Part shown: positions 3,185 to 62,175 of the stretch, one piece after another
Numbering within the stretch: position 1 is the stretch's first letter
How the letters are laid out: every line of letters starts with the position of its first letter
DNA from: a bacterium
GTDB taxonomy: Bacteria; Patescibacteriota; Minisyncoccia; Phycocordibacterales; UBA6899
DNA length: 64,000 nt
Assembly (NCBI GenBank): GCA_021851895.1
Contig: JAJZQJ010000006.1
Coordinates: forward strand, 13,861 to 77,860
Reading direction: 5' to 3'
Position numbers and translations under genes: made by a program
Notes under the pieces: generated by a model
Told to the model about the DNA's origin: nothing
The model's database searches: none
The model's input: only the letters and a program-made list of their open reading frames with translations

Positions 3185-3211
3185 GCCGTAATTATATCAC
3201 GGTAAATCCAA

Positions 3212-3303
3212 AGTCATGAGTCATGCGTCATGAGTCATGAGTAAAAGCAAAATACACAGCATAATACTGTGTATTTTTGAGCGCCCTCATGACTCATGAC
3301 TAG
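3212..3303. repeat. Inverted arrays of tandem heptamers (GTCATGA x4 at 3212-3243; CTCATGA x2 at 3286-3303) flanking the pilB terminator hairpin
   Basis: Seen directly in the sequence; the right-hand array overlaps the pilB stop codon. Confidence 0.6.
3250..3277 (-). terminator. Intrinsic terminator of pilB (aaatacacag / ctgtgtattt hairpin followed by a T-tract on the minus strand)
   Basis: 10-bp stem plus a U-run. Confidence 0.6.
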
Positions 3304-35072: not shown

Positions 35073-35122
35073 AGCATACCAGAATTCACCCCCTCGCGCA
35101 CACCCTCAAAAACTTAATTTGA

Positions 35123-35148
35123 ACGTTTATCACGTACGTCATAAACGT
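35123..35148. promoter_or_regulatory. Near-perfect 26-nt palindrome ACGTTTAT-c-ACGTACGT-c-ATAAACGT
   Basis: Seen in the sequence; related to the 36064-36095 inverted repeat. Confidence 0.4.
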
Positions 35149-35339
35149 CCATAATTAACACCACCTCCTTAAATCTTCTGCCTCCATTTTCAGTAAATTT
35201 CAAATTTTAAATAAAAAAATACACACTTCACATGTATATACAAAATATAATTCGCCCTCAGTGTCACAATCAAACCGAAAAACCAAAAATGGGAGTTCAA
35301 AAAATTGCAAGAAGTGAGCCATCGCCCTTATTCTGAGTT

Positions 35340-36063: not shown

Positions 36064-36095
36064 AGGACGTTTATGGCGAACGGCATAAACGTCCT
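36064..36095. promoter_or_regulatory. Perfect 12-bp inverted repeat AGGACGTTTATG-N8-CATAAACGTCCT, directly after a perfect DnaA-box-like TTATCCACA at 36051-36059
   Basis: Seen in the sequence. Confidence 0.4.
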
Positions 36096-36243
36096 ATTTA
36101 AAATAAAAACGCGATGGGATGCAAAATCACACCGGATGGCACAATTGCCATGCGGTGCGGTTTTTTGTTAATACTTTCTAGCAATCTCAGGCGGCTATGA
36201 CCTCGCCTGTGATTGAAAGTTCTTATTTCAGTTTTATTATTCT

Positions 36244-42862: not shown

Positions 42863-42975
42863 GCACAAAAGACAAGACTATGCTCAGGCCACCAGGAAGT
42901 GCCTGTAGACGGCGAAAAAATGCGAAACGCGAGCACCGGACGGCGCTCGCGTTTCTACACAATCATTCCTTTTAA

Positions 42976-45027: not shown

Positions 45028-45183
45028 AATATTTTGAGTTTTTTGACACCGAAGGCCAACAGGCCAAGGGCGCAAATGGGTGTTTGGTAATCATGGTTCT
45101 ACCACAACCCCAACTGAGAAACAAGCAAAGCACGGCCCTGTGACAAGGTTTTTACCTTGACACCACGATTCCCTCCCTGCCTT

Positions 45184-45209
45184 TTTAAAGGACAAAACTG
45201 TCCTTTAAA
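45184..45209. promoter_or_regulatory. Perfect palindrome TTTAAAGGACA-aaac-TGTCCTTTAAA in the paralog A upstream region; a further half-site TTTGTCCTTTAGT at 45271-45283
   Basis: Seen in the sequence; the 13-mer is identical to 52088-52100. Confidence 0.55.
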
Positions 45210-45384
45210 AAGGACGCTCACTAACATGCGCTATACCTAGCTTTCTGGAGATACATGAATTCCCTTCATCTTTGTCCTTTAGTTTCGTGCACATTTGCAA
45301 TTATCTTCAGAACACACATTATATATATTGGCAAGTATTCTATACACCATGCGCATACAGACAAGGCTTCCCCTCACAACAAAA

Positions 45385-45409
45385 AACTTCGCCGAAGCGA
45401 AGTTTTTTG
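45385..45409. terminator. Terminator of paralog B (aacttcgc cgaa gcgaagtt, flanked by A5 and T6)
   Basis: Seen in the sequence. Confidence 0.65.
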
Positions 45410-45437
45410 TCTTGAACGACTTACCGAATACTCTGCA

Positions 45438-47438: not shown

Positions 47439-47880
47439 ATGAATTTAAATGAAATAATCAACTTGTTCCGTTTTCGCTTGGACGCCATACGAATAGAACA
47501 CTCGTATTCCGTACCTCGCTCGGCGGAATAAATCATGTAGTCATCATGCGATGTCTACGAGAGTTCACTACTGTTATAAATAATGAAGCTCATAAATCAC
47601 GGTTTGAAGTTTGTGCGTACCATCCCCTCCGCAAGAAGTGACAATACGCAGCTGGCCCGTATATAAGACATGGATCCGCAAGCGTTCCCTGCATATATAC
47701 GTACCGATCGATCACGATCAGCATCCCAGAAAGTGCGGTGGCTACCCATCTTCCCATGCAACCCTGATCGACTGCTTCGCTTTCCTCTATGAGGCATCCA
47801 CAGTGCGTACACCACAGATGCTCCATCGCAGAAACTTTTCGCACAAACATACAAAGACGAAAAACTGCTCACGAAAGCTT
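47439..47880. repeat. About 440-nt non-coding upstream block of paralog B, duplicated at 50319-50767 with about 85-90% identity; contains a conserved leader hairpin at 47487-47507
   Basis: Aligned by eye. Shared segments aaataatcaacttgttccgttttcgct..., ataaatcacggtttgaagtttgtgc...ccgcaagaagtgacaatac..., and gcagaaacttttcgcacaaacatacaaagacgaaaaactgctcacgaaagct. The ORFs called inside it (47590-48018) are judged spurious. Confidence 0.7.
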
Positions 47881-48130
47881 TCTCCTCACACACAAGCTAC
47901 CGCTCGATCGCTCGGGCAGTACCTATCTTGCACGAACCCCTGGAGTAGAGGACCGTGTGCGATAGACATCCTGTCAGACGTCTTCACTTGCATAACAATG
48001 CCGTACTACGTTTTGTGACAGGAATAGCATAATTATATAGTCGATAACAATATCGGCAATAAAAAGCATCCACACAATGTCCTATACGAATGGTTAGGGC
48101 ATAAAGGACAGGGGTGCCTTGTTCAATTCA

Positions 48131-48262
48131 AGGGAATAGGGAAAAGGGAAAAGCGTATAGGGTAAATGCCACTAGTAAGAAAAAACGCGAGCACAGTAGG
48201 TGCTCGTGTTTTTTGTATTCTGTTTTTCTCTTTTCCCTATACCCTTTTCCCTTTTCCCTAGC
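48131..48262. mobile_element. MITE-like mini-element: imperfect TIRs about 30 bp long (agggaatagggaaaagggaaaagcgtataggg / ccctatacccttttcccttttccct) around a terminator-type hairpin
   Basis: The TIRs are reverse complements with a few mismatches; same repeat family as 52219-52736, 55118-55349 and 62138-62175. Confidence 0.55.
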
Positions 48263-48286
48263 ATATCCTCCTCTTCCTAAAAGCAA

Positions 48287-48308
48287 AAACCCGCCGAAGC
48301 GGGTTTTT
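48287..48308. terminator. Terminator of paralog C (aaacccgc cgaa gcgggttt)
   Basis: Seen in the sequence. Confidence 0.65.
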
Positions 48309-48347
48309 GTCTGTAGACGATCAGAGATCGTTTCTACATCAGGAACA

Positions 48348-50318
48348 TTAGTTCGTGATGAAGAGGTTTGATGACTGGAAGTCTGACTCTGGTGCTGCAG
48401 TGATCGAGAGGCTTGCTCCGGTTGCTGCATCAGTGTTGTTGTAACCAACTGAACCGATCTGGAGGCGGTACTGGCCAGCTGCTGATGGGTCGTAAGTTAC
48501 GACAACCTCGAGCGTTGCTGACTCACCGTCTGCGATCTTCACCGTGTTGCCATCGCGAGTACCACCTGAAATGAGTGCTACTGATGCGGTGTTCGTACCT
48601 GCTGCAGTTACGTCAGTGTTGTTTGAATCCTCAACAGTGAAACGTACACCTGCTGCGCCGGTTGAGCTTGCGGTGAATGGAACCCATACATCATTGCCTG
48701 ATGCGGTTACCTTAACATCGTAGGTGAAGGTACCGAAGCTTGCTGATGGTGTGTTTGAGTTCGTGGTTGCAGCTACATTTGAGCTGACCTTGGTTACGTT
48801 AAGACCAGTTGCAAGGAAGGTCTGCTGGCGGCCATCTGCTGAGCCATAGAACTTCGATGATGGGATAACGTCGCCGTTTACGTCCTGAGCGTTGATGCTC
48901 TTGAACGAGATGGTTGCGGTCTGGCCTGCAACGAAGGTTGCGGTACCGATCTTCTGCATCTTTGCAACGACCTGGAAGGTCTGGGTCTCGTCCTGGTTAA
49001 CAGTTACGAGGTTGTCGATGTTGAAGTATGCAACACCTGCTGAAAGCTCTGAGCTTGAAGTGTCGACAGTGTCGATGACTGAACCATTCTGGACGAGCTG
49101 GAGCTCGCTGATCATGTTTGAAGTCGTCGTTGAAGTCGTAACGTTCATCTGGAGCTGGTCAAATGACACCTTGGTGCCCTCTGCCTTTACCTTGAACTCA
49201 TTCATGACAACCTTGTCGCCTGATGAAGTATCAGAAACGAAGTTGGTCTTCACGTCTGGGTTTGCAGCACCTGCTGAGAAGCGAACCTTAACATCAGATG
49301 ATGTTGAGAGCTTGTTAACAGCAACGCCGTTGATCGTGTAGGTCGTTGTGTCTGAGAGCACTGCACCGGTTGCATCTGCGAAGCGGATGTTACCCTCGGT
49401 GATGTCCCACTTAGCACCTGCGTTATCAGAATCAATCGATGAAGCACCGACTGCCTTGATGGTGAAGGTGGTCTGGTTTGAAGCACCCATCTTCACGATA
49501 ACCTTGTTGTCAAGAGCGATCGTCTTTGAGTACTGACCAGCTGAATCACGGTTGAAGTCGCTTGCATTTGCTGAAGCAACCTTTGAACCATTTGCGTATA
49601 CGTCGATCCTATCGAAGTAACGGTTAAGGTAGTTTGAAGCATTTGGGTATGCTGATGCGTTGCTTGCCTCGAATGCGAGAGACACCTTGAGGTGTGAAAC
49701 TGCAACGTCAGAACCGTCTGCCTTTACCTTGAATCCTGCAACAGTCTGTGCAACACCCGTCACGACATTCGTGTCGTTGTCTGAAGTGTAGCTGGTGACC
49801 GTTACTGAACCTGCCGTACCATTAAGACCAGTTACTGGAGCTGGAGTTGTGGTTGGGGTGGTTGATGGAGTAGAAACAACTGCACCTGAGCAGAGAGCAT
49901 TGATCTTTGCGCGGGTTGATGCACCTACGAAACCGGTACCTGCTGAGAGGCCTGCTGGAGCGAGCACCTCAGATGCGTACTTGTTCTGGAACTTGATGAC
50001 TGCAGCCTTCGTTGCTGGGCCGAAGTACATCGTTTCGTTGCCCTTTGAACCAACGCCTGATGCTGCTACCTGAGTATCAACATCTGAGTTAAGTGCCTTC
50101 TGGAGGTCCATAACCTCAGCGTCTGACATACCTGCCTTGAGTGACTTTGAGAGTACTACTGAGCAAGATGCTGTTGTTGCCGGCTTTGCTGCTGCGAGCT
50201 GAGCCATGAGCGCATTGATCTGCGCCTGGAGCTCCTCGATGGTCGCTGCTGATGCTACTACTGGGAGGAGCACTGCTGCGAGAGCAAGACCGACGAACTT
50301 TGAATTCTTATTCGTCAT
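48348..50318 (-). CDS. Surface protein paralog C (about 656 aa from MTNKNSKF): same architecture, C-terminus SDFQSSNLFITN
   Basis: N-terminus MTNKNSKFVGLALAAVLLPVVASAATIEELQAQINALMAQLAAAKPA; PG-binding domain; the 37-codon N-terminal ORF extension is rejected. Confidence 0.75.
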   Translation of the reverse strand: MTNKNSKFVGLALAAVLLPVVASAATIEELQAQINALMAQLAAAKPATTASCSVVLSKSLKAGMSDAEVMDLQKALNSDVDTQVAASGVGSKGNETMYFGPATKAAVIKFQNKYASEVLAPAGLSAGTGFVGASTRAKINALCSGAVVSTPSTTPTTTPAPVTGLNGTAGSVTVTSYTSDNDTNVVTGVAQTVAGFKVKADGSDVAVSHLKVSLAFEASNASAYPNASNYLNRYFDRIDVYANGSKVASANASDFNRDSAGQYSKTIALDNKVIVKMGASNQTTFTIKAVGASSIDSDNAGAKWDITEGNIRFADATGAVLSDTTTYTINGVAVNKLSTSSDVKVRFSAGAANPDVKTNFVSDTSSGDKVVMNEFKVKAEGTKVSFDQLQMNVTTSTTTSNMISELQLVQNGSVIDTVDTSSSELSAGVAYFNIDNLVTVNQDETQTFQVVAKMQKIGTATFVAGQTATISFKSINAQDVNGDVIPSSKFYGSADGRQQTFLATGLNVTKVSSNVAATTNSNTPSASFGTFTYDVKVTASGNDVWVPFTASSTGAAGVRFTVEDSNNTDVTAAGTNTASVALISGGTRDGNTVKIADGESATLEVVVTYDPSAAGQYRLQIGSVGYNNTDAATGASLSITAAPESDFQSSNLFITN

Positions 50319-50767
50319 AGTGAATGAAATGAAATAATGAAACTTGTTCCGTTTTCGCTCGGACGCTATACGAATGAAACATTCGTATGTCGTACCCTCG
50401 CTCGACGGAATAAATTTTGTATCTGTCATTAACGACTGATACGGTAAACGATTACTTAACAGTAAAAGTTTTATAAATCACGGTTTGAAGTTTGTGCATA
50501 CTATCCCCTCCGCAAGAAGTGACAATACACAGCAGGCCCGTACACTCCGCTAGGATCCGCAAGCGTTCCTAATTTTGTATACGCACCAATCATCTACCAG
50601 CAATGTCCTGTGAGAAGTTTGAGTGGCTGCTCGCCCCTCTCCGTTCACTACCAACAGACGACTTGCTTCGCTTTCTTCGATGGAAAACGCGATGTCACCA
50701 CCACGCCTTTCATTGCAGAAACTTTTCGCACAAACATACAAAGACGAAAAACTGCTCACGAAAGCTG
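50319..50767. repeat. Second copy of the duplicated upstream non-coding block, with a perfect leader hairpin atacgaatg-aaa-cattcgtat at 50368-50388
   Basis: Offset of 2880-2887 nt from copy B, the same as the gene-start offset. Confidence 0.7.
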
Positions 50768-50991
50768 TTGCCTCCAGCCCCAGAACCCAGCGGCACCCAT
50801 AATACTCACTTGGTGTGTGTATGTGTGCTTAGAATTTGTGGCACGCTCATTCCCGCCCGAAGGCGTGGAGATGAATGAGCGTAACGCAATCTTATTACAG
50901 TTGCGACACTAAGTCAACAAACGAAATCATTTTTTGTGACAATTTAATGGCTCTATAACTGGATATTCGACACATCGCCTCGTCTTAGAGG

Positions 50992-51059
50992 TGTCCTAAA
51001 TATGTCCTATATGCATGCGCAAATTATTTCAATTTAGGATATACATGTCCTATAGGACA
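50992..51059. promoter_or_regulatory. Cluster of TGTCCTA half-sites ending in the perfect palindrome TGTCCT-AT-AGGACA (51046-51059), between the regulator gene and the paralog array
   Basis: Seen in the sequence. Confidence 0.5.
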
Positions 51060-51088
51060 GACCCTTTTCTCTGGTGCCGCACCGATAT

Positions 51089-51116
51089 GAAAAGGCCCAA
51101 TGTTTAGGGCCTTTTC
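51089..51116. terminator. Terminator of the regulator gene (gaaaaggccc aatgtttag ggccttttc)
   Basis: Seen in the sequence. Confidence 0.6.
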
Positions 51117-51125
51117 ATATAATTC

Positions 51126-51147
51126 GATGTCCGTTATAAAGGACATC
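51126..51147. promoter_or_regulatory. Palindrome GATGTCC-N8-GGACATC overlapping the regulator stop codon
   Basis: Seen in the sequence. Confidence 0.4.
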
Positions 51148-52030
51148 AGTGCAGCAAAGGAAGTCGCGCGATGCGGTAAGTCGACCAACGACGGTCACCC
51201 TCCTTAATAAGGATACCCTCTTCGACCATTGCGGAGAGTTCACGCTGAATGGTTTTCTCGGAAACATTTTGGAGTTTTGCCGAAATGTCCTTTATCGAAC
51301 AATTCTGTTTCGTGGCAATGACACCGGTAATGATCTCTCGGCGTGAGTTTCGTGTCTCCTCACTGCGTGCCTGGCGCTCTTGCACATCTGCATCAACGAG
51401 CGTTATGTGTGGTGCAACCGCTGAACGGATACCACCTTCGGGGACCATAGTGATCGGCTTCGCCTTGATCACCTCCTTCTCCTTTATAGGGAGAGGAGCA
51501 ATCGGCTTAGGAATGTCACTCATCTGTAGGCGCGGCGCGCTGAGCGGCGTGCTGACGGGAATCTTCTTTTCAATGGGCGGTGCGACAGGCTTTGCTTCGG
51601 CTGTCTCTGCTTTGACCGCTACTGCTTCCGTGGTCGCTGCAATCGTAGCGAGAGAGGCATCCGCCTGCTCTTCCCCACCCCGCGTCGGCGCTGCGATCTC
51701 AAGGACATCGAAGAAGTCCGAGGTGAACAACGGTGCGGGGGTCGGCGCAGCACTACCTCGTGCCGCAAGGAGTACCTCGAGCGCACGGAGCTCATCCTCA
51801 AGGACATCAGCATTCATCGGGCTGACTGCACGTGCGATACGTGCGATCGAGAGAATGTCGAGCGTCTGCTCGATACCGCGAAGAATGCTTGCAGCATCGG
51901 ATTCGAGGAGCGCTACTGCGCAGTTGCGAAGGTGCCACTTTAGGGGCTCCTTCTCGGACATGATGTCCGTGACCATATAGAGAGCTGTTGCAAGCTTCAG
52001 TGCCTTGCGTGAACTGTACGTATCTGACAT
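51146..52030 (-). CDS. Putative transcriptional regulator with a C-terminal winged HTH, an Ala/Pro-rich linker and an uncharacterised N-terminal domain
   Basis: C-terminal IKDISAKLQNVSEKTIQRELSAMVEEGILIKEGDRRWSTYRI looks like a DeoR/GntR-type recognition helix plus wing. Confidence 0.5.
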   Translation of the reverse strand: MSDTYSSRKALKLATALYMVTDIMSEKEPLKWHLRNCAVALLESDAASILRGIEQTLDILSIARIARAVSPMNADVLEDELRALEVLLAARGSAAPTPAPLFTSDFFDVLEIAAPTRGGEEQADASLATIAATTEAVAVKAETAEAKPVAPPIEKKIPVSTPLSAPRLQMSDIPKPIAPLPIKEKEVIKAKPITMVPEGGIRSAVAPHITLVDADVQERQARSEETRNSRREIITGVIATKQNCSIKDISAKLQNVSEKTIQRELSAMVEEGILIKEGDRRWSTYRIARLPLLH

Positions 52031-52042
52031 ATGTCCTTTAAA
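52025..52042. promoter_or_regulatory. 10-nt palindrome GACATATGTC overlapping the regulator ATG, followed by TGTCCTTTAAAA; upstream half-site TTTGTCCTTTAGT at 52088-52100
   Basis: Seen in the sequence. Confidence 0.5.
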
Positions 52043-52218
52043 ATAGTTGATGGATTATTAACCGACAATCAGGTTGGAACACAACCTTTTTGTCCTTTAG
52101 TAGTGACGTACATTATACTAGATAATTTGAAAATGTCAATAGTTTCCCTATCTCATATCAAAGTCACTACTCTTGTGTCCTTCATACTACTCATCTGGGA
52201 CAATACGTCAAATACCAA

Positions 52219-52736
52219 GGGAAAAGCGTATAGGGAAAAGGTAATAGGGTTAATGCATTAAAGACATTTGATGCATAGCCGTTCTACTATATTTATAGAT
52301 AGTGTGCTATATTATAGCGATGGTGTACATTAAGGACTACAAGGATCTTATTGTATGGAAGAAGTCAATGGTCCTCACAAAGACCATATACCTGCTCTGT
52401 AAACACATTCCGACCTCTGAAAAATTCAGCCTAATTTCTCAGATGCAGCGATCTGCAGTTTCTGTGCCCTCAAACATTGCGGAAGGCTACGGGCGCACGA
52501 CGCGCAAAGATTATGCGCACTTCCTGCATATTGCACGAGGCTCAGCGGCCGAGCTAGAAACCCAAATCTTACTCACGAAAGACCTCTATCCGAATATCGA
52601 TACTACGCTAGCTCTCAACCAAGTAATGGAGGTTCGTAAGATTCTTGTCGTACTTATTCAAAAACTTGAGGCAAAATGAAAATGCAGCACGAGTATGCTG
52701 CATTTCCCTATTCCCTTTTCCCTATACGCTTTTCCC
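52219..52736. mobile_element. TIR-flanked cassette (518 nt; TIRs gggaaaagcgtatagggaaaaggtaatagggttaatgc / gcatttccctattcccttttccctatacgcttttccc) carrying one small gene
   Basis: The 37-nt ends are reverse complements apart from about 4 mismatches; same family as 48131-48262. Confidence 0.6.
52320..52679 (+). CDS. Four-helix-bundle protein (23S rRNA intervening-sequence protein family)
   Basis: Signature VPSNIAEGYGR...KDYAHFLHIARGSAAELETQ; own hairpin terminator at 52679-52704. Confidence 0.65.
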   Translation: MVYIKDYKDLIVWKKSMVLTKTIYLLCKHIPTSEKFSLISQMQRSAVSVPSNIAEGYGRTTRKDYAHFLHIARGSAAELETQILLTKDLYPNIDTTLALNQVMEVRKILVVLIQKLEAK

Positions 52737-52744
52737 TTAAACTC

Positions 52745-55078
52745 CTAGAGATCGTCTGCAGTGATAAGTATCGCCCTTGGCTTCGCGCCATCTGCCGGCC
52801 CAATGATCCCCCGCTGCTCCATCATATCGATGATGCGTGCCGCTCGAGAATACCCAAGACCCATGCGTCGCTGCAAGAACGACGTCGAGGCCTTACCACT
52901 CTCGACGACAACTCGCTTTGCCTCTTCAAACTTCTCGTCATCATCACCGCTATCGATACTCCCCGAGAGCATATCATCAGGGATGCCGTCGACGAGGGTA
53001 TTCGCGCCATCGGGATTTTGAGAGCCAATTGCAAGTTCTTCACCCATCGTGCCGTCATAGTTCTCTTTGAGGAACTTTACGATCTTCTTCACCTCATCCT
53101 CGGAGATGAATGCGGACTGGAGACGTATTGGCTTTGGACTCGAAGAAGAGACATAGAGCATATCTCCCTGTCCAAGCAAGACTTCGGCGCCCGCTTCATC
53201 GATGATCGTACGTGAGTCGACTTGCGAAGCGACCTGCATTGCGATACGGCCCGGGATGTTCGCCTTAATGAGACCCGTGATGACATTGACTGACGGACGC
53301 TGTGTCGCGATCACGAGATGAATACCCGTTGCGCGTGCAAGCTGCGCGATACGGACGATCGAAGCCTCGAGCTCTTTTGGAAATGCCATCATGAGATCTG
53401 CGAGCTCATCGATGACGATAACAATGTACGGCATGAGCTCCGGAAGCTCCTTCTCCTCGCCGGGCTGCGCCTTGCCATCTAATTTACGCTTCTCATAACG
53501 GTCGAGTGCAGGCTGCAACACATTCTTATGATATGAGCCGATATCTCGACACTTCTCACGCTCAAGCACCTCGAGACGTCTATCCATCTCCTTTGTGGCC
53601 CACTTCAATGAAAGTAATGCCTTCTTCGCCGCAGTGATGACTGGAGTCAAAAGATGCGGAATGCCATTATAGAGCGTAAGCTCAACGCGCTTCGGATCCA
53701 CCATGATAAAGCGTAGCTGCTCTGGAGAATTACGATACAAAAGCGATGTGATGATCGTATGCATGGTCACCGACTTTCCTGAACCTGTCGTTCCTGCAAC
53801 CAGCATATGAGGCATCTTTGCCACGTTCATATATTGACCGGCACCACTGATTCCACGGCCCAAAGCAACAAAGAGTGGATTTGGATCGTTCATGAACGTC
53901 GGATCCCCAAGCAAGGCACCAAGACCAACCGTCGCCTTCTGCTTATTCGGAATCTCAATACCAACGAGGGACTTCCCTGGGATAGGAGCCTCGATACGGA
54001 TCGGCGATACAGCGAGCGCAAGCTCCAAGTCGCTCGCGAGCGACGTGATACGTGAGAGGCGGACGCCCTGCGCAGGTTTCAATGAATAGCGCGTAACCGA
54101 GGGACCAACGGACACCTCATCCATTTCGACCTGGATACCGAAATTCGAAAGGGTGCTCTTAATGGTATTCGCATTTGCCTTTATATCCCCAAAGCCAGCC
54201 TTGCCCTTATCCCCTGCTAGTAATGCGATCGGAGGAGGAATGTATTTCCCGTGGAGATTCGAGTCAAACGTAAACGGAACACCTTCATTTTTACTTGGAG
54301 TCTTTCCCGGCTCGTGCATGTTGACGACGAGTGGTCGCTCCTCGGGCACCTCCTCAACGGTCTCCTCTTCAGGATCCTCGACCTCAACCTCTTCTTCTTC
54401 GTCAGGTGCCTGCTCAGCGACACTCTTCTTACCAAGACGAACAGTTACACCCTCACTGCCCTCAACGAGCTCCGGCTCACCATCATCCTCTTCCTCATAC
54501 CACTGCTCTGGCTTTGGCTTTCGCTTGAAGCGCGCAAACAAATTGAACACGAATCCCAAATGGAGTGGTGTATCAAAGAGCACAAGAATCGCAATGATGA
54601 ATATCGCCGAAAGCAGTATTCCTGCGGCAATTCCGCCAAAAAGGAATTTGATTCCAAGATATACGTAGTACCCGAATGCTCCACCAACGCCACCATCCCC
54701 AGCATTCGAATCGACGAGTGCAAGCAAACCAAGCGCAGAAACGAGGAAAAACGGACCAGCGATCAAAGCAGGGGTTGGCAAACCATGCCCACCAGTGCGC
54801 AAGAAATTAAAGCCGAGCAACAGGAAGAGCGTTGGAACGACCCAATAACCGACACCAAAGACATAATGGATACCATCATAAAGCTTCGCGCCGAGAAAAC
54901 CGCCCTGTCCGAAGCCTGCGACAAAGAGAATGGCTGAAAAAAGCGCGAGCCCAATTCCGATGATAGAATGCCTTGTTTCCTCCTTTAAACCTGACCAGAA
55001 GCCTATAGATGGCCCTGCTTCATCATATTCGGGTGTTGTCTTGACTCGCTTGCGCGTTGCCTTCTTTGCTGCTGCCAT
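52745..55078 (-). CDS. ftsK: DNA translocase FtsK/SpoIIIE
   Basis: 777 aa; N-terminal TM domain, acidic linker, Walker A GTTGSGKSV, C-terminal gamma wHTH domain (LQRRMGLGYSRAARIIDMME). Confidence 0.85.
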   Translation of the reverse strand: MAAAKKATRKRVKTTPEYDEAGPSIGFWSGLKEETRHSIIGIGLALFSAILFVAGFGQGGFLGAKLYDGIHYVFGVGYWVVPTLFLLLGFNFLRTGGHGLPTPALIAGPFFLVSALGLLALVDSNAGDGGVGGAFGYYVYLGIKFLFGGIAAGILLSAIFIIAILVLFDTPLHLGFVFNLFARFKRKPKPEQWYEEEDDGEPELVEGSEGVTVRLGKKSVAEQAPDEEEEVEVEDPEEETVEEVPEERPLVVNMHEPGKTPSKNEGVPFTFDSNLHGKYIPPPIALLAGDKGKAGFGDIKANANTIKSTLSNFGIQVEMDEVSVGPSVTRYSLKPAQGVRLSRITSLASDLELALAVSPIRIEAPIPGKSLVGIEIPNKQKATVGLGALLGDPTFMNDPNPLFVALGRGISGAGQYMNVAKMPHMLVAGTTGSGKSVTMHTIITSLLYRNSPEQLRFIMVDPKRVELTLYNGIPHLLTPVITAAKKALLSLKWATKEMDRRLEVLEREKCRDIGSYHKNVLQPALDRYEKRKLDGKAQPGEEKELPELMPYIVIVIDELADLMMAFPKELEASIVRIAQLARATGIHLVIATQRPSVNVITGLIKANIPGRIAMQVASQVDSRTIIDEAGAEVLLGQGDMLYVSSSSPKPIRLQSAFISEDEVKKIVKFLKENYDGTMGEELAIGSQNPDGANTLVDGIPDDMLSGSIDSGDDDEKFEEAKRVVVESGKASTSFLQRRMGLGYSRAARIIDMMEQRGIIGPADGAKPRAILITADDL

Positions 55079-55117
55079 AAAAGTGTGATTTCGTGGCTCT
55101 ATTGTAGCACGAATGCA

Positions 55118-55349
55118 GGGTATAGGTTATAGGGAATAGGGTATAGGGAAATGCAAAATGCAATGAATCAAGCCATAAATTCGACAGGAATAGCAATTTC
55201 ATATTAAATGCGTAAAGGACATCCTCTGTCCTTTTGCTTCTGAATTACCTACGACCTATGACCTATAACCTATTGCCTATCAAGCATATTTGAGCAAGAC
55301 CAACTCACCCGGACTCTTCTCTATACCCTATTCCCTATACGCTTTTCCC
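55118..55349. mobile_element. Third TIR-flanked mini-element (gggtataggttatagggaatagggtatagggaaatgc ... ctataccctattccctatacgcttttccc); it encloses the palindrome AAAGGACA-tcctc-TGTCCTTT (55214-55234) upstream of ftsK
   Basis: Seen in the sequence. Confidence 0.5.
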
Positions 55350-55431
55350 TTTCACTCTCCCTCCATTGACGTTGCCAGTCTACACTTTCGCGCTGAGCCC
55401 CCACCCTCCCTCTTATGCTATCATTATCCCC

Positions 55432-55872
55432 ATGACACTCAGGCAACTCATTATTCGTGGAACAGGAATCGCACTCGCGCTAGCCTTCCTTGTCTATGCG
55501 GGAATCGAGTCACGCGGAATCTTCCTCGGGCCGACGATCATCCTCGATTCGCCACCTGAAGGCATCAGTACGACCTCTTCACTCATGCTCATTTCTGGAC
55601 GATCCATTCGCACGAAGGAGCTCACCGTCGATGGCGGTAAGGTCTTCATTGACACAAGCGGTAATTTCTCGGAGCATTTGGTGCTCTCCCCTGGGTATAA
55701 TATAATGACTATTGTTGCCACTGACGCTCGAGGAAAACAGCATACGATCACAAGGCATCTCATCTATGATGCACCTCATGAGCAGCGCATTGTGACCGCT
55801 ACTACCTTAGCAGCGACCACGACCGAGGCGACGAGTTCACCAGCAACCACTACGTCAGGAATTAACATTTAA
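55432..55872 (+). CDS. Membrane-anchored hypothetical protein upstream of recA
   Basis: Start at MTLRQLIIRG; one TM; Thr-rich tail. Confidence 0.4.
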   Translation: MTLRQLIIRGTGIALALAFLVYAGIESRGIFLGPTIILDSPPEGISTTSSLMLISGRSIRTKELTVDGGKVFIDTSGNFSEHLVLSPGYNIMTIVATDARGKQHTITRHLIYDAPHEQRIVTATTLAATTTEATSSPATTTSGINI

Positions 55873-55881
55873 CATCATCGT

Positions 55882-56985
55882 ATGGCATTCAAAAAACCAG
55901 CAAAGAAGGCGGCGAAGACGACAGGAACGAAAGCGACCGATAAAGACGCTTTCGCATCGATCGAAGCAACACTTAATGCGATCAAAACCAAGTTCGGCGA
56001 CGAAGCGATCATGAAGCTTGGCGACCAGCCACGCGTCGCGATCGAGGCAGTCTCTACCGGCTCACTCGGACTTGATCATGCGCTTGGCATCGGCGGACTT
56101 CCCCGCGGACGCATCGTAGAGATCTTTGGACCTGAATCATCAGGTAAGACGACACTTGCGCTGCACGTCATCGCAGAGGCACAGAAGATCGGTGGCATCG
56201 CAGCGTTCATCGACGCAGAGCATGCACTCGATCCTGAATATGCACGTAAACTTGGAGTAGATATCAATCATCTTCTCGTATCGCAGCCTGATACCGGAGA
56301 ACAAGCACTTGAAATCACCGAGTCACTCGTCCGCACCGGCAATATCGACGTCATCGTCGTTGACTCCGTCGCAGCACTCACCCCAAAGGATGAGATCGAG
56401 GGCGATATGGGTGCACAGCATGTTGGAAAGCAAGCTCGCCTCATGAGTCAGGCTCTCCGCAAGCTCACTGCGATCTGTAGCAAGACAAAGACCATCGTCA
56501 TCTTCATCAACCAGATCCGTATGCAGATCGGCGTGATGTTCGGTAACCCCGAGACGACGCCAGGAGGAAAGGCGCTAAAGTTCTACACCTCCGTCCGTAT
56601 CGACATCCGCAAGATCGCACAGATCAAGAAGGGTGAGGATGTCATCGGTAGCCGCACGCGAGCAAAGGTCGTGAAGAATAAGGTTGCTGCCCCATTCAAA
56701 CAGGCAGAATTCGATCTCGTCTACAACGAAGGTATCAGCCGCGAGTCAGAGATGCTCATGTTCGGTGAGAAGTATGGCATCATCAAGAAGTCGGGATCAT
56801 CATACAGCTGGGGCGATATGAAGATCGGCCGTGGCTATGACTCTGCACGACTCTTCCTCCGTGAGAACAAAGAGGTCGGCAAGGATCTCGAAGCAGCGAT
56901 CCTCGAGAAGATGCGCGGTGATGAATCATTCTCTGTCACACCGACATCTGATGATCTTGATGAAGGGACTCCTGACGAAGAGTAG
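55882..56985 (+). CDS. recA: Recombinase RecA
   Basis: GPESSGKTT Walker A; loop L1/L2 regions; 367 aa with a Lys-rich N-terminal tail and an acidic C-terminus. Confidence 0.9.
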
Positions 56986-57003
56986 AATATTTGTGCAACG
57001 TAA

Positions 57004-57056
57004 AAACAGCCGGCTATCGCACGGCTGTTTTTATACGCCGCATGCATATGCGGCGT
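57004..57056 (+). terminator. Two tandem hairpins after recA (aaacagccg..cggctgttt plus TT; acgccgcat gcat atgcggcgt)
   Basis: Seen in the sequence. Confidence 0.6.
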
Positions 57057-57248
57057 GCACAAATATTCTGCTTTCTCAGCAAGATCACGGCACTCGTCAT
57101 TTTCCGCAGACTTACCGTTTTACTCCAGTGCGCATTCAATATATACACGTACATCCCATTTGCGCGCTTTGCTCTAAACAGGTAATTCTACAAAAAGCCC
57201 CTCGGTGTTTCATCGTATTTTTGCTTATACATATTGATTCAAAATAAA

Positions 57249-57274
57249 AAGGAGGTCGAGAATTCGACCTCCTT
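57249..57274 (-). terminator. Terminator of the epimerase gene (aggaggtcga gaa ttcgacctcct; T5AT4 follows on the minus strand)
   Basis: Seen in the sequence. Confidence 0.65.
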
Positions 57275-57278
57275 GATC

Positions 57279-58184
57279 TTATGTGAGCTCCCATTCCTTG
57301 CGCAGCTGCGCAATACCCTCAGGGAGCGTGATGAGCGACTCCCAACCAAGGAGCGTACGCGCGCGCGAACTATCCGCGAGTGCGCGCTTCGGCTCGAGGC
57401 GTGCGGGGATGTATTCGATCGGATGCGCGAAGAGTGCTGCGAGCTCATTGATGCTCGTCTCGATGCCGTTGCCGATGTTGATGATCTCGCCCTTCCCCAC
57501 GCTTTCCGCATCGGCAGCCAAGAGATTCGCGCGCGCAATGTCCTCAACATGCACGAAGTCACGCGTCTGCGTCCCGTCACCAGTGATTGAAAGCGGCTTC
57601 CCTTCCTTGATCATACGCAGGAAGGCTCCGACAACGAGTGCGTAGGCACCGTTCGGATCGAGACGTGGCCCATAGACATTGAAATAGCGCAGGCATACGG
57701 TTTGGACACCGTACAACCATGCGTATTGATGCATGAGCTTCTCGCCGATGAACTTATGCGTACCGTAGGGCGACTGCGACTGCTCCGGCATGGTTTCCAC
57801 GAAGGGCACCTGCTCCTGATTGCCGTAAATCGCCCCCGAAGAAGAGAACACTACCCGTCGCACATGTTCGAGCCGTGCCACTTCGAGCACATTGAGCGTA
57901 CCGACCACGTTCGTGTGGAACGTCGCCTCAGGCTCATCGATCGTGTGCTGCACGCGCGGCAAGGCCGCGAGATGGAAGATGGTATCCACGCCGCGAGCCG
58001 CATCCCGAAGACGCTCACGGTCACGCACGTCAGCGTGAATGAAATAGGCGTTCTTGTTGACATGACCCATTCCTGCCACGAGACTATCATAGACGATGAC
58101 ATGATCACCACGCGCGACAAGCGCATCGACGATGTGCGAGCCAATGAAACCAGCTCCACCCGTCACGAGTACTTTCCTCTTCAT
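57279..58184 (-). CDS. NAD-dependent epimerase/dehydratase (UDP-sugar 4-epimerase, GalE-like extended SDR)
   Basis: VLVTGGAGFIGSH Rossmann motif; YxxxK catalytic region; AGGAGG RBS upstream of MKRKV. Confidence 0.8.
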   Translation of the reverse strand: MKRKVLVTGGAGFIGSHIVDALVARGDHVIVYDSLVAGMGHVNKNAYFIHADVRDRERLRDAARGVDTIFHLAALPRVQHTIDEPEATFHTNVVGTLNVLEVARLEHVRRVVFSSSGAIYGNQEQVPFVETMPEQSQSPYGTHKFIGEKLMHQYAWLYGVQTVCLRYFNVYGPRLDPNGAYALVVGAFLRMIKEGKPLSITGDGTQTRDFVHVEDIARANLLAADAESVGKGEIINIGNGIETSINELAALFAHPIEYIPARLEPKRALADSSRARTLLGWESLITLPEGIAQLRKEWELT

Positions 58185-58267
58185 GTTCACGATAACCCTC
58201 CTTAAAGATCTGAGGTTTCTCTTCCCTATTACTAACATGAATGAAAAAAGTCGCAAGGATGCGACTT

Positions 58268-58612
58268 TTATGCATGCTGGATCTTACGACCTGAAATAGA
58301 AGGGAGCTCTTTCAGGAGGTCTAAGACAAGCGAAATAGCGAAATAGCAAATAGAGAGGAGAAGGAGGATCGTAACCGCTTTCGTCGAGAGGAATGCACCA
58401 AAGAGGTAGCGTGTCTTATCGAAGAAACCGAATGCGGCCATATTATGGAGCACTGCACCATAGGAAACATAATGCGTCGAAACGAAGATGCTTAAAAGAA
58501 GCGCATAGGTTTTGCGAGCATGAGGAAAGAAGAAATGACGCAAAAACGCGATTGCGCGGACTCTTCTCATGATACGTTGTTCGAGTTGTGTTTGCATGAT
58601 ATTTCTATTCAA
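58268..58612 (-). CDS. Small membrane protein, putative anti-sigma factor
   Basis: 114 aa with two TM segments; start overlaps the sigma-factor stop by 4 nt. Confidence 0.35.
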   Translation of the reverse strand: MNRNIMQTQLEQRIMRRVRAIAFLRHFFFPHARKTYALLLSIFVSTHYVSYGAVLHNMAAFGFFDKTRYLFGAFLSTKAVTILLLLSICYFAISLVLDLLKELPSISGRKIQHA

Positions 58613-59223
58613 ATCAATTCACCCCCTTTGCGCGCGGCGACCTCAAGCGCATGCTTTCCTCTATAGATCCTTGTCTTTACCGCAGCGAGCGTGAGGCCCT
58701 CCATAGCCGCGATTTCCTTTTGCGAATATTCTTCAAGAAAGAAGAGGCGGAGCGGCCGCGCAAATACTTCAGGTATCTTTCCGAGAAGATCGCGGACGAG
58801 ATCGCGCATCTCATTATTCCTCACTTCATCATTGGTATCCGCGAGCTGCTCATAGATCTCTGGATCGAGGTCACACTGCAATGCATGTGTGCGCTTCTTA
58901 CGCTGGTATCGCGTGAATGCGGTGTTCATCAGAATGCGATACGCCCATGATCTGAACGTCGCACCTTCGACGTAATGAAATTTATCTGCGTGGATATAGA
59001 TCTTTAGAAACGTCTCCTGGACGACGTCTTCCGCATCCTGCTCGGCTTGCACGATATTGCGGGCCCGGCGGAGAAAAGCGACCTCATAGCGACGAACGAG
59101 CAGCGCGAAGCTCTCTGGATCCTTTCGGGATCGCAAGAGGAGGTCTTCATCGGCAGATGACCCATCAAGCTCGTCCACCAAGACGTCATCAAGTAGCATG
59201 GCTACAGTATGTTCGACTTTCAT
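58609..59223 (-). CDS. RNA polymerase sigma factor, ECF (sigma-70 group 4)
   Basis: Region 2 (DAEDVVQETFLKIY) and region 4 (LTLAAVKTRIYRGKHAL) motifs. Confidence 0.75.
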   Translation of the reverse strand: MKVEHTVAMLLDDVLVDELDGSSADEDLLLRSRKDPESFALLVRRYEVAFLRRARNIVQAEQDAEDVVQETFLKIYIHADKFHYVEGATFRSWAYRILMNTAFTRYQRKKRTHALQCDLDPEIYEQLADTNDEVRNNEMRDLVRDLLGKIPEVFARPLRLFFLEEYSQKEIAAMEGLTLAAVKTRIYRGKHALEVAARKGGELI

Positions 59224-59323
59224 AAAAAAGCAACTGAAGCGTCCATGACGCGTCACCTCCTATTACACGGGAGCCACTCAAAAAGTTGCATAATGTCGAA
59301 ATATGGGCTAATATGGCCATATT

Positions 59324-59899
59324 ATGGCAATTCTTGCATACAACGAAGTAACACAGCGCAAGTTCATCGACTACGAGGGAGAGCCTTTCGAGGTCCTTAC
59401 GTCATGGGTCTTTCGCAAGCAGCAGCGTAAGCCGGTCAACCAGACCAAGCTGCGCAGCCTTATCAATGGCCGCGTGCTCGAGATCACCTTCCACCAGAAC
59501 GATAAGATCGAGGAGGCTGAGGTCGGCACCGCACAGGTGAAGTATCTCTTCTCGAATAAGGGCGAACACTGGTTCTGCGATCCAGAGGATCCAAAGAATC
59601 GCTACACCCTCTCTGACGATATCGCTGGGGAGATCCTTAAGTGGACCAAGACGAACACGGTACTCGACGGCATCACCTATGACGAAAAGGTCATCGGTAT
59701 CCGTCCACCGATCAAGGTGGTCCTCAAGGTCACCGAATGTGCCCCTGCAGTTCGTGGAGACACTTCAGGAAATGCACTAAAGACCGTCGTTGTTGAGACT
59801 GGCGCAAAGGTGAACGTCCCAATGTTCATCAATGAGGGCGACATTATCGAAATCAACACGGAGACTGGCGAATATACTAACCGCGTTGAGAAGGCCTAA
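59324..59899 (+). CDS. efp: Elongation factor P
   Basis: 191 aa; three-domain pattern with GDT...G.KVNVP and GEY motifs; terminator with perfect 17-bp arms at 59896-59934. Confidence 0.85.
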
Positions 59900-59962
59900 C
59901 TAAAAAAGAACACACTTTGTGTTCTTTTTTAGTTGATTGCGACCACCACATCGGATGTTATA

Positions 59963-60537
59963 CTATGTTAATGAAAGTAAGAGGCTTCACACTCATCGAA
60001 CTCCTTGTCGTCATTGCGATCATTGGCCTACTCTCAAGCGTCATTCTTGCTTCGCTCGGAACTGCCCGCGCGAAAGCACGCGATGCACAGCGCGTCGCAG
60101 GTGTGCGACAACTCATGAATAGTTTGGAGTTCTATTTTGATGTTAATGGAAAATTCCCACGCTCAGCAAGCTGTGGAGCGACCGTACCCAATACCGGCTG
60201 GTGTAATAGCTGGGAATCCCTAGATGCGAATGGCCACTGGATAAGAGATACAGGTACTCAAGATGTCCTTTCTCCATACATCAATAGGGACTCGATAGAC
60301 CCGGCGCCAAAGTTACCCGTCCTCGCGACATGGCTCACCGAGAATGGTGCATACTATTATTTCTCGAACAATCTCTCTCCTACATATAAAGATATGTACG
60401 TCATTGTATTCAAGCTTGAAAAACCTCCACATCCTATCGAATCCATCGACGGAGTCTATGACTGTCTCGGAAATGCATTTGACTACGGCAATACCTGGCA
60501 AGGAGTAGTATCGATAGGACGTAGCTGTACAAGATAA
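59963..60537 (+). CDS. Type IV pilin-like protein (orphan, outside the main pilus locus)
   Basis: [23 protein letters not shown] class III signal; terminator at 60560-60599 (18-bp arms). Confidence 0.7.
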
Positions 60538-60623
60538 CCGCAAAAATGTTTTTAAGAGTAAAACAAAACACTTTCACGAGAGTGAAAGTGTTTTGTTTTA
60601 CATTCGCGCAAATGCGCAATCCA

Positions 60624-60836
60624 TTATGCAGCGATATATGGCATGAAGCCCATGTAACGACTACGCTTGATTGCGAGGGTCATAGCACGCTGCTGCTTGC
60701 TCTGGAGATTTGTACGCTTCTTGCCCATGATCTGGCCAGCTGGCGTAATGAAGGTGTTCAAAAGTTCAACATCCTTATAATCGAAGTGCTTAAGCCCCTC
60801 GATAGAGATCTCCTTCTTCTTCGTAACTTTTTTCAT
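60624..60836 (-). CDS. rpsR: 30S ribosomal protein S18
   Basis: Start at MKKVTKKKEI; FDYKDVELLNTFIT and AIKRSRYMGFMPY motifs; the longer ORF start is rejected. Confidence 0.85.
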   Translation of the reverse strand: MKKVTKKKEISIEGLKHFDYKDVELLNTFITPAGQIMGKKRTNLQSKQQRAMTLAIKRSRYMGFMPYIAA

Positions 60837-60842
60837 ATTCTT

Positions 60843-60945
60843 GTAGTGAGAAGTGAGAAGCAAGAAGTGAGAAGTATTTCCAGTAGCGCATGTTTTATAC
60901 ATGAATTGCCTTCTTACTTCTTACTTCTTACTTCTTACTATTTCT
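60843..60945. repeat. Inverted arrays of tandem nonamers (AGTGAGAAG x3 at 60843-60872; CTTCTTACT x4 at 60912-60945) in the ssb-rpsR spacer
   Basis: Seen in the sequence. Confidence 0.6.
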
Positions 60946-60948
60946 TAG

Positions 60949-61422
60949 TTAAAAAGGTATGTCATCCGGGTTAATATCATCACTTGGATACTCGATCGTC
61001 TCGAGTTCTGGCATCGGTGCCGATGCGGCAGCCGGTGCGTGTGAAGGAGCTGCTGGTCGAGCGGTGCCACCAAAGTCACTTGCTCCTTGACCTCCTATCT
61101 TTGGACCGAACTGGAAGTTCTCCACAACGATCTCCGTACGATATTGCTTCGTGCCATCCTTAGCATCCCAAGAGCGAGTCTGAATACGACCTTCTACGAA
61201 GATCGGACTCCCCTTCTTCATATAGCGATTGATGGTATCCGCCTGCTGTGCCCATGCGACACAGTTGTGAAACTGTACCTCCTCCTGCTTTGCACCATTC
61301 TTGTCCTTGTAGACACGATTCGTCGCAACTGAGAACTGTACGACCTGTGTCCCTGCGGGGGTCGTCTTCAATTCCGGATCACGGGTTAAGTTGCCGTAGA
61401 TGAATGCCTTGTTGATGTACAT
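60949..61422 (-). CDS. ssb: Single-stranded DNA-binding protein
   Basis: OB-fold N-terminus; Gly-rich linker; C-terminal acidic DDIPF tip. Confidence 0.85.
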   Translation of the reverse strand: MYINKAFIYGNLTRDPELKTTPAGTQVVQFSVATNRVYKDKNGAKQEEVQFHNCVAWAQQADTINRYMKKGSPIFVEGRIQTRSWDAKDGTKQYRTEIVVENFQFGPKIGGQGASDFGGTARPAAPSHAPAAASAPMPELETIEYPSDDINPDDIPF

Positions 61423-61588
61423 ACCATTTGCGGGCCGTATATTTGGGCGCATATGACCTCGCCTCAGCACCCGACTCATTCACCGTACCAACGTACGGCT
61501 CATTTGAGTTCGAGTGCTTCCGGCGGAGGCCACCTGCATCCCAAATCTCTGACCCTTAATTATGTTCAAATAAATAGTGAACTTAGTT

Positions 61589-62068
61589 TTATTCTGCGAT
61601 GAGCTTATCAATAGAAGCGTCGATCTCTGCCTCGCTTGCAACAGGCTGTGCCTCTGCATCTTCTCCATCCTTGCCCTCCTTCTTCTTCTCGAAGAGCTTG
61701 CGTGGAGCCATAGTGTCCTCGCGAACGGTCTTGATAAGCAAGAAGCGGATGACATCCTCGTCTGCCTTCAAGGTCGCAGCGACCTCCTTTGCACCCTTTG
61801 GCTCAGCCTCGAACTTGAACCAACCTGTATAAGCTGACGTATACGTTGCGCGCTTGTTCTGCGCGACCTTCGTCATGGGATAGGCAAGATCGATCTTCTT
61901 CGCAGCACCCTCGGCGATGACGGTGCCATTAATCGAATTGATCGCCTCACGGATCGCAGCAACACGTGCAGCGAGCCCATCCTCGTTCACCGTTGGGACA
62001 ATGAGGAAACCTACTTCGTAGATTCGCTCATCTGCGCCAATGGCGTCAATGGTCATATCTTTTTCCAT
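61589..62068 (-). CDS. rpsF: 30S ribosomal protein S6 (with an acidic C-terminal extension)
   Basis: ERIYEVGFLIVP core; classic rpsF-ssb-rpsR gene order. Confidence 0.8.
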   Translation of the reverse strand: MEKDMTIDAIGADERIYEVGFLIVPTVNEDGLAARVAAIREAINSINGTVIAEGAAKKIDLAYPMTKVAQNKRATYTSAYTGWFKFEAEPKGAKEVAATLKADEDVIRFLLIKTVREDTMAPRKLFEKKKEGKDGEDAEAQPVASEAEIDASIDKLIAE

Positions 62069-62137
62069 GGGGGCACTATAGCAAAGCACATCCGTAAAGT
62101 CAATTTTTTTAGATAGATGAAATTATACAAATGCAAA

Positions 62138-62175
62138 GGTTGTAGGGAATAGGTTATAGGGAATAGGTTTAATGC
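62138..62175. repeat. Solo copy of the TAGGGAATAGG...TTTAATGC repeat
   Basis: ggttgtagggaataggttatagggaataggtttaatgc matches the TIR family. Confidence 0.5.

Follow-up and report, generated by a model that had tools for sequence, protein, structure and literature searches.

A 64-kb chromosomal segment of a Patescibacteria (Paceibacterota/Parcubacteria) bacterium, which we refer to as the window, contains a set of short intergenic loci with inverted, repeat-rich ends, and one of these encloses a gene for a 23S_rRNA_IVP four-helix-bundle protein (PF05635 / TIGR02436; IVP hereafter). A prior reading made from the letters alone (the sequence-only reading) had taken four such loci for a family of MITE-like (miniature inverted-repeat transposable element) sequences that can carry a passenger gene, which raises the question of what kind of element these loci are and how the IVP gene belongs to them. 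The answer that we favor, with a probability that we put at roughly 55%, is that they are palindromic cassettes of the type known as rRNA intervening sequences (IVSs), here residing outside rRNA genes, with one locus (locus C) as the full-length copy and the others as relatives that lack an open reading frame (ORF).

Locus C (52217-52738) lies between ftsK and a DeoR-like gene, and consists of the following parts.

52217-52256, + strand: left arm, AGGGAAA AGCGTAT AGGGAAA AGGTAAT AGGGTTA, then AATGC; 33 nt are 97% complementary to 52706-52738
52320-52679, + strand: IVP gene, encoding a four-helix bundle of 119 aa (PF05635, E 1.7e-33; TIGR02436, E 8.8e-34)
52678-52707, both directions: terminator hairpin, with a 13-pair stem and a T-run on the - strand
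52700-52738, - strand: right arm, G-rich on the - strand, starting 6 nt past the ftsK stop codon

The ends of this locus had been described as near-perfect terminal inverted repeats of 37 nt. The arms are indeed inverted, but the match runs over 33 nt with one mismatch (97%) and reaches about 36-39 nt only with more mismatches. Moreover, while terminal inverted repeats and a size below 600 bp are both present, the ends are not ordinary terminal inverted repeats; they are runs of about five degenerate 7-nt units (AGGGWAW), many of them ending in AATGC, and the arms contain no internal palindrome, only the tandem 7-mers.

The assignment of the enclosed gene to the 23S-IVS family was correct, as the domain matches above make plain, and its product also matches PDB entries 2GSC (E 3.7e-19) and 2RLD, each deposited with five chains; IVP homologues have been described as homopentamers (PMC4990558). 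An extended -10 element (TGcTATATT) is located 6 nt 5' of the IVP ATG, a position that suggests a leaderless mRNA. The gene does have a terminator, as had been claimed, and this hairpin is bidirectional and common to the IVP gene on the + strand and ftsK on the - strand. Extended -10 boxes (TGnTAYAAT, TATAGT) are found just 6-9 nt 5' of the ATG at the start codons 1566, 52320, 55434 and 62070, which suggests that leaderless mRNAs are frequent in this organism. Two other ideas about the gene were dropped: a conserved MQN start behind AAATGCAAAAT was not borne out by the N-termini of 120 homologues, and a diversity-generating retroelement (Avd-like) reading came down to a weak PF22296 bAvd match (E 0.0048, below the cut-off), with no reverse transcriptase among the 50 window ORFs that were taken into the protein domain scans. 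A phage collection gave no IVP match.

The remaining loci are given below; L099 is a more distant relative with about 80% nucleotide identity to the window.

48130-48169, + strand: left arm of locus B (48130-48260), AGGGAAT AGGGAAA AGGGAAA AGCGTAT AGGGTAA, then AATGC; inverted repeat of 30 nt, 93%
48180-48214, usable both ways: core of locus B, a terminator hairpin (CGAGCAC...GTGCTCG) related to hairpins at 42918-42957 and in L099
48225-48260, - strand: right arm of locus B; the whole locus is predicted to fold at -61 kcal/mol (z -9.3)
55117-55156, + strand: left arm of locus D (55117-55350), five units and AATGC, abutting the ftsK promoter (TGcTACAAT, - strand)
55244-55281, - strand: inner array of locus D, G-poor TAGGNNN units
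55316-55350, - strand: outer right arm of locus D, holding an exact 17-mer; inverted repeat of 34 nt, 85%
62137-62175, + strand: locus E, a solo array with AATGC, flanked by the terminator of the S41 peptidase gene and the promoter of rpsF
1594-1688, no single strand: locus A, an AGGTCAT-type array, a terminator hairpin at 1637-1666 and an inverted array, between the pilT-like gene and pilC
3203-3303, no single strand: locus G, unit GAGTCAT / ATGACTC around a terminator at 3249-3277, beginning at the pilB stop codon
60840-60951, no single strand: locus F, in the spacer between ssb and rpsR, with GAAGTRA units in inverted arrays

All four loci of the sequence-only reading are thus present where it had placed them, far above chance. 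Locus B has both of its arms around a bidirectional terminator hairpin and locus E is a solo end, as had been proposed. Locus D possesses the inverted arms, but it comprises three arrays, the inner one being additional, and the GGACA palindrome said to lie between its arms belongs to a separate family of AAGGACA boxes and not to the arrays. Loci A (AGG type), F and G lie beyond the span that had been reported. The combination of AATGC and the CGAGCAC...GTGCTCG hairpin occurs with arrays at 48166-48215 (locus B) and at 945-990 of L099, and without arrays at 42918-42957, and may be a seed around which arrays form.

The enrichment of these arrays is pronounced. The window holds 9 arrays with at least three perfect AGG cores at an exact 7-nt period, against 0.46 expected from shuffles, and the 17-mer GGGAAAAGCGTATAGGG, of which exact copies are common to loci B, C and D, occurs four times exactly and seven times with two or fewer mismatches (0.00 expected). 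The terminal AATGC that had been claimed for the family is found at the inner end of 5 of the 10 AGG-type arrays (about 0.2 expected), the remaining five being without it. In the AGG type the G-rich array stands to the left on the + strand and its reverse-complement, C-rich counterpart to the right, with the core between them. The same architecture is built from three unrelated unit families in the window, namely the AGG type, GAGTCAT (locus G) and GAAGTRA (locus F), with only one IVP gene among them. The cores of A, B, C and G are intrinsic-terminator-like hairpins, at A, C, F and G a gap of 0-6 nt separates the upstream stop codon from the proximal array, and arrays overlap promoter -35 regions at A and D. 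Several loci interrupt runs of genes that share one orientation (pilB, G, response regulator, pilT-like gene, A, pilC; also rpsF-ssb, F, rpsR).

What the sequence-only reading missed is that a gene of this family between inverted arms is the architecture of an rRNA IVS. IVSs have complementary borders and are excised by RNase III, and in the Coxiella IVS a 28-bp terminal stem is accompanied by two to three GACAGAT heptamers in the 5' region, the first of these repeats being where RNase III cuts; how IVSs arose and move has been described as unexplained (PMC4990558). IVSs with a PF05635 ORF occur in Leptospira, Coxiella, Brucella and Azospirillum, and have also been reported among candidate-phyla rRNA insertions, and locus C resembles them in its PF05635 gene, in the size of the insert (350-450 nt), in complementary ends able to form a stem of about 28-36 bp, and in the heptamers of its arms (GACAGAT in Coxiella, GGACRGA in Azospirillum, AGGGWAW here). 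It differs from them in lying outside rRNA genes, between ftsK and a regulator gene, and in having its own promoter and terminator as well as ORF-less sister loci; excision by RNase III is a possibility raised for it by analogy. A scan of the full 64 kb turned up neither a tRNA nor any Rfam family that reached its gathering score, hence no rRNA match; the window carries instead genes for FtsK, RecA, ribosomal proteins S6 and S18, SSB, SecDF, type IV pilus proteins and glycosyltransferases. The closest FtsK in a set of species-representative genomes is 62% identical, and the good matches are all Paceibacterota or Kaiserbacteria-like metagenome-assembled genomes (MAGs).

We propose that locus C, with its IVP gene, promoter, bidirectional terminator and two reverse-complement arms of about 36 nt, would be the full-length form, and that the ORF-less loci have like arms with nothing between them but a terminator hairpin or a short spacer. 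Where transcription reads through, or the message is polycistronic, the arms would be predicted to pair into a double-stranded RNA helix of 25-36 bp that could clamp the terminator and, by analogy with genuine rRNA IVSs, serve as a substrate for RNase III, so that the insert might be cut out of the flanking RNA and be nearly harmless to the host operon. The arrays would grow and shrink by slippage, with arm symmetry kept by intrastrand template switching, gene conversion, or selection for the stem, and new copies would arise by a DNA-level process that leaves no target-site duplications.

The predicted RNA folds are consistent with such a stem. Loci A, F and G gave z-scores of -6.6, -7.5 and -7.4, respectively, alongside the -9.3 of locus B, and in the minimum free energy fold of locus C the entire gene is enclosed by a stem of about 36 bp (z -7.7). 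We compared the arms with those of two relatives found by an FtsK search, L115 (a groundwater contig; FtsK 93% identical) and L117 (GCA_035583355.1; FtsK 90%). The duplex between the two arms of locus C has a predicted energy of -61.1 kcal/mol, against -38.8 and -26.2 when its left arm is paired with foreign right arms, and the corresponding values for L115 are -50.2 against -30.6 and -30.1. Thus, in the window and in L115, an arm is a better match to its partner in the same genome than to the orthologous arm elsewhere.

In all three genomes the IVP gene stands at the same position, downstream of and convergent with ftsK, with arrays on both sides, while the unit period at this site varies (window, 7 nt; L115, 7-9 nt; L117, 8 nt), and the terminator hairpin between the IVP gene and ftsK shows no sequence conservation. 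The IVP proteins of the window and L115 are 58% identical. Given the 93% identity of FtsK we considered replacement of the cassette, and this was ruled out since several neighbors have drifted just as far, the S41 peptidase at 58% identity, the GlucB-like protein at 49% and the DeoR-like protein at 65%, so that the divergence of the IVP is ordinary. Judged from position and divergence, then, the copy with the gene did not arrive recently. Turnover of the arrays by slippage, with arm symmetry retained, fits these comparative data. The positional IVP orthologue of L117 (12438-12764) was called at 88 aa, though tblastn aligns 109 aa, and this copy may be in decay, a fate described for the Coxiella S23p ORF.

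Other loci vary between the relatives, as a mobile family would predict. Locus D is present in L115, with its left arm almost identical, and absent in L117. E and F occur in the window only; L115 lacks both and has 31 unrelated nt in place of E and, in place of F, an orthologous spacer of 21 nt without an array. Copies are also found beyond these local sites: in L099, arrays including the exact 17-mer surround AATGC and the hairpin, while the corresponding spacer of the window keeps the hairpin (42918-42957) and has no arrays. A metagenome scan with the exact 17-mer returned 30 single matches, mostly chance, with L099 as the sole clear relative and L096 as a possible analogue. Across 80 ftsK-syntenic loci of other Paceibacterota, AGG-type arrays were at chance level (8 in 1.31 Mb), and therefore the AGG unit is lineage-specific; nonetheless, Paceibacterota loci do carry arrays of many different units, with 18 at lag 7 and 0 at lags 5, 6, 8, 10 and 11. 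Examples with the unrelated units CTACGTT, TTGATAC and CAAATAC are found in L058 (12302-12335 and 12867-12897) and L035 (6782-7586); their spacers adjoin ftsK, recA and efp-like genes, and there is no IVP gene in the vicinity.

The association of IVP genes with such arrays extends well beyond this lineage, and is in our view the result most deserving of follow-up. All 18 IVP genes examined, from six phyla, are flanked by arrays of 7- or 8-nt units, mostly as inverted pairs; taxa among them are Patescibacteria, Cyanobacteria, Bacteroidota, Gemmatimonadota and Proteobacteria, and one of the genes is in a genuine 23S rRNA IVS. In 32 flanks of 16 of these genes the best autocorrelation lag was 7 in 25 and 8 in 6, and strong periodicity (lag-7/8 score of at least 0.76) was found in 59% of the 32 flanks, compared with 1.4% of 1,648 control flanks, which were taken from genes of Paceibacterota loci, so that IVP flanks on plasmids are here set against controls from Patescibacteria only. 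The number of units per array in other genomes ranges from 3 to about 17. In other Patescibacteria, IVP genes with flanking 7-nt arrays are found in spacers of 12-40 nt between co-oriented operon genes (response regulator, IVP, histidine kinase; ABC ATPase, IVP, FtsX permease), and some of these tight operon spacers are without terminators. On plasmids of Cyanobacteria, Bacteroidota and Gemmatimonadota, flanking arrays were present at each of the nine IVP genes inspected. The units differ from one genome to the next, with GGTTTAA and ACTTCAA also among the IVP-flanking units of other taxa.

L073, Patescibacteria: unit core AGG/AGCG
L119-L123, Patescibacteria: unit core AGCT
L074, Patescibacteria: unit core CTAG
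Calothrix plasmid: unit GGGTGTA
Anabaena plasmid: unit GGTGACA
Geminocystis plasmid: unit GGGAARA
Picosynechococcus plasmid: unit GGAGATAA
Riemerella plasmid: unit GGTTYAA
Gemmatirosa plasmid: unit GGCAGGA

Between Nostoc PCC 7120 and Stanieria, the plasmid IVP copies have 80% identity and the same units on both flanks but different neighbors, which indicates that the IVP gene and its arrays move as a single unit. Sequence shared at non-orthologous sites, together with gene-and-array units common to different orders, clearly points to dispersal. The genuine IVS is in L134 (Azospirillum lipoferum 4B plasmid AZO_p2, 13992-15076), an unannotated 23S rRNA IVS with an IVP ORF and arms made of GGACRGA heptamers, a unit close to the GACAGAT repeats of the Coxiella IVS. 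On the cyanobacterial plasmids L125, L128 and L131 the IVP gene, with its heptamer or octamer arrays, is lodged within a cas operon, in two cases with cas6 and cas4 as its neighbors and in one with cas10 and cmr3. 23S_rRNA_IVP was earlier reported as 'CRISPR-associated' (PMC3936711), a label that may reflect insertion of the cassette and not its function.

With these data in hand the competing explanations can be weighed. The proposal of the sequence-only reading, non-autonomous elements with terminal inverted repeats moved by a transposase encoded elsewhere and bearing the IVP gene as a passenger, captured a good deal: there is a dispersed palindromic family, one copy does carry the gene, the ends are inverted and the elements small, several copies share an exact 17-mer that recurs at a non-orthologous site in L099, and loci come and go between relatives. 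It is the mechanics of a classical MITE that found no support. Target-site duplications are lacking at the flanks of all seven loci, A to G, and at the junctions compared with L115 and L117, where filled sites are replaced spacers and not clean insertions, and a search of 50 window ORFs and of the genes called in L115 and L117 yielded neither a transposase nor an integrase. Further, the ends consist of variable numbers of degenerate units, three unrelated unit families share one architecture, and the period shifts from 7 to 8 nt at a single site between relatives, while the presence of arrays around IVP genes in many phyla means that the IVP is no incidental passenger. Dispersal is probably not by classical MITE transposition, and we regard this explanation as very unlikely. 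An immobile mutational by-product, in which slippage beside terminator hairpins makes 7-nt duplications, quasi-palindrome template switching copies them to the other arm, and IVP genes land or survive in the hairpin loops, is simply unlikely. It would account for arrays surrounding pre-existing terminators, including the 42918-42957 hairpin that is array-free here and endowed with arrays in L099, for arms that stay symmetric while unit sequence and copy number drift fast, and for the lag-7 arrays scattered over Paceibacterota loci, and slippage has been proposed as the cause of heptamer excess in work cited in PMC4692102 and PMC4679880. It leaves unexplained, however, an exact 17-mer with the odd unit AGCGTAT at B, C, D and in another species, the arrays at every one of the 18 IVP genes, terminator-less operon spacers included, and the gene and flank units common to Nostoc and Stanieria.

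The arrays might instead be iterated DNA or RNA sites for an oligomeric factor, possibly the pentameric IVP itself, that regulates termination, promoter activity or mRNA fate. The arms in the window typically have about five units and IVP homologues crystallize with five chains, a match that is only suggestive; the overlap with -35 regions at A and D, the conserved AATGC at array ends and the co-inheritance of gene and arrays would also agree with binding. Yet the 3 to about 17 units per array elsewhere, the period of 7 or 8 nt at one site, and three unit families beside a single IVP gene all speak against it, making it quite unlikely. Least probable are G-quadruplex regulatory elements. GGGAATC arrays in Xanthomonas, for which such a role was proposed, form G-quadruplexes in vitro (PMC4692102), and about 4 of 14 arrays in the window (B left, B right, C right, D left) fit a G3-N(4-11)-G3 pattern four times over, but the others, including A, D inner, E, F and G, do not and would be incapable of three-tetrad structures, and IVP-flanking units elsewhere include AGCT, CTAG, GGTTTAA and ACTTCAA. 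Because most unit families are G-poor, G-quadruplex formation is not the unifying property, and as a unifying explanation it is already largely refuted. A KOPS/dif-like reading, considered on account of the adjoining ftsK and the GGG-N-GGG motifs, was rejected given that the cores are unrelated terminator hairpins and G-poor units share the architecture.

Several observations weigh against the IVS-type cassette that we favor. At A, B, C and G the distal arm is 3' of an intrinsic terminator, and thus the full RNA stem could form there only on read-through; transcription and cleavage of the loci are themselves model predictions, and no RNase III gene is present among the 50 ORFs of the window, which covers 64 kb of the genome. 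Loci E and D depart from the paired layout, E having one array and D three, and the left part of D alone folds with a z-score of only -0.8. The left arm of L117 pairs slightly better with the right arm of L115 (-63.8) than with its own (-59.3), and on the L125 plasmid the flanking arrays are direct and not inverted. Finally, heptamer arrays occur in Patescibacteria without an IVP gene nearby (L058, for example), and therefore arrays need no gene in cis.

A bolder extension is that the IVP gene and inverted 7-nt arrays constitute one selfish system across phyla, resident both in rRNA genes and between protein genes, with the pentameric IVP acting on its own arrays in binding, spread or persistence, and ORF-less pairs as its non-autonomous offspring. 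We consider this doubtful at present, though if true it would make the system a major source of the excess of intergenic heptamers in prokaryotes. The link between gene and array joins two puzzles. The IVP protein has been reported since 1993, crystallized twice, and met in rRNA insertions, cas operons and many genomes, and its function is a long-standing puzzle; the other is the heptamers themselves, the commonest short tandem repeat in prokaryotic intergenic DNA, for whose function there was "no clear clue" (bioRxiv 10.1101/309039). Within a limited literature search we found no published general association of the two. Earlier literature notes IVP genes in cas loci and in candidate-phyla rRNA insertions and leaves the repeats unmentioned. 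The two nearly met in Xanthomonas, where about 186 GGGAATC arrays, including 70-75 convergent pairs, are intergenic, near the upstream ORF and species-variable, and where, per the supplement, repeat #15 overlaps the start codon of XCC0516, a link undiscussed there (Rehm et al. 2015, PMC4692102); XCC0516 is the IVP protein solved as PDB 2GSC.

The arrays of the window resemble the heptamers of Xanthomonas and Nostoc in the 7-nt unit with its GGG core (GGGAATA here is one base from GGGAATC) and in forming convergent pairs in intergenic DNA, near where the upstream ORF ends. Xanthomonas and window arrays also keep their position between species while length and sequence vary. They differ in that the window units are degenerate, those of Xanthomonas and Nostoc being near-perfect, and in the AATGC terminus of the window arms. 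The Nostoc GGGGAYT heptamer is STRR1. REP, REPIN and BIME sequences and Correia-type MITEs are likewise short extragenic palindromes after genes, where they can act as terminators or mRNA stabilizers, and are homogenized within a genome; by this general description the window elements are similar in form and placement. REPINs, however, depend on a RAYT transposase (IS200/IS605-like) and each of their arms has its own small palindrome, and Correia elements have defined 26-bp terminal inverted repeats and TA duplications, none of which was seen in the window elements; no Y1 transposase of RAYT type was present in the ORFs scanned, the genome being incomplete. The TAACTGA heptamers of Beggiatoaceae, cyanobacteria and Bacteroidetes, whose patchy distribution suggests horizontal spread (MacGregor 2015, PMC4679880), are also intergenic tandem repeats, but are mostly direct and just 5' of start codons, with one inverted case reported. 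Neither that paper nor its supplement mentions an IVP gene (PMC4679880).

For annotators it matters that the arrays break short-read assemblies. Logan contigs of SRR13189623, assembled from short reads of the source organism, encode proteins identical to window proteins, with the IVP gene among the gene calls, and end inside arrays (L112, L113, L114); the protein database, moreover, draws many of its IVP homologues from contigs of 0.5-2.5 kb. Array elements thus appear to fragment short-read assemblies, and are likely under-represented in MAGs.

Apart from the arrays, the window has other repeated features. AAGGACA / TGTCCTT boxes number 21 copies against 6.5 expected, and are found at 45188-45279, 48104, 51139, 52032-52182 and 55215-55233. 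They cluster in the promoter regions of three paralogous surface-protein genes, of the DeoR-like gene and at locus D, are conserved in L115 and L117, and are probably operators of a local helix-turn-helix regulator. The - strand carries, at 42976-50429, a tandem set of three paralogous genes whose products are about 670-700 aa long and have a weak PG_binding_1 domain, and a segment of about 300 nt 5' of the paralogues is repeated at 88-94% identity (47590-47890 and 50473-50774); with an 86-aa ORF inside it that has no Pfam match, this segment may represent either a small gene or a leader that has been conserved. A 37-nt inverted repeat unrelated to the heptamer family (35114-35150 / 36065-36101; 81% complementary, containing ATAAACGTCC) encloses a 221-aa ORF whose product has a PaaX central, Cas2-like domain and which lies beside a TatD DNase gene, and a 90-nt tandem duplication of 72% identity is located at 37088-37267, within a 1285-aa ORF (36244-40101). 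At the end of the pilC-like gene, a perfect 28-nt palindrome at 311-369 (AAAAAAACGCC...GGCGTTTTTTT) looks like a strong bidirectional terminator.

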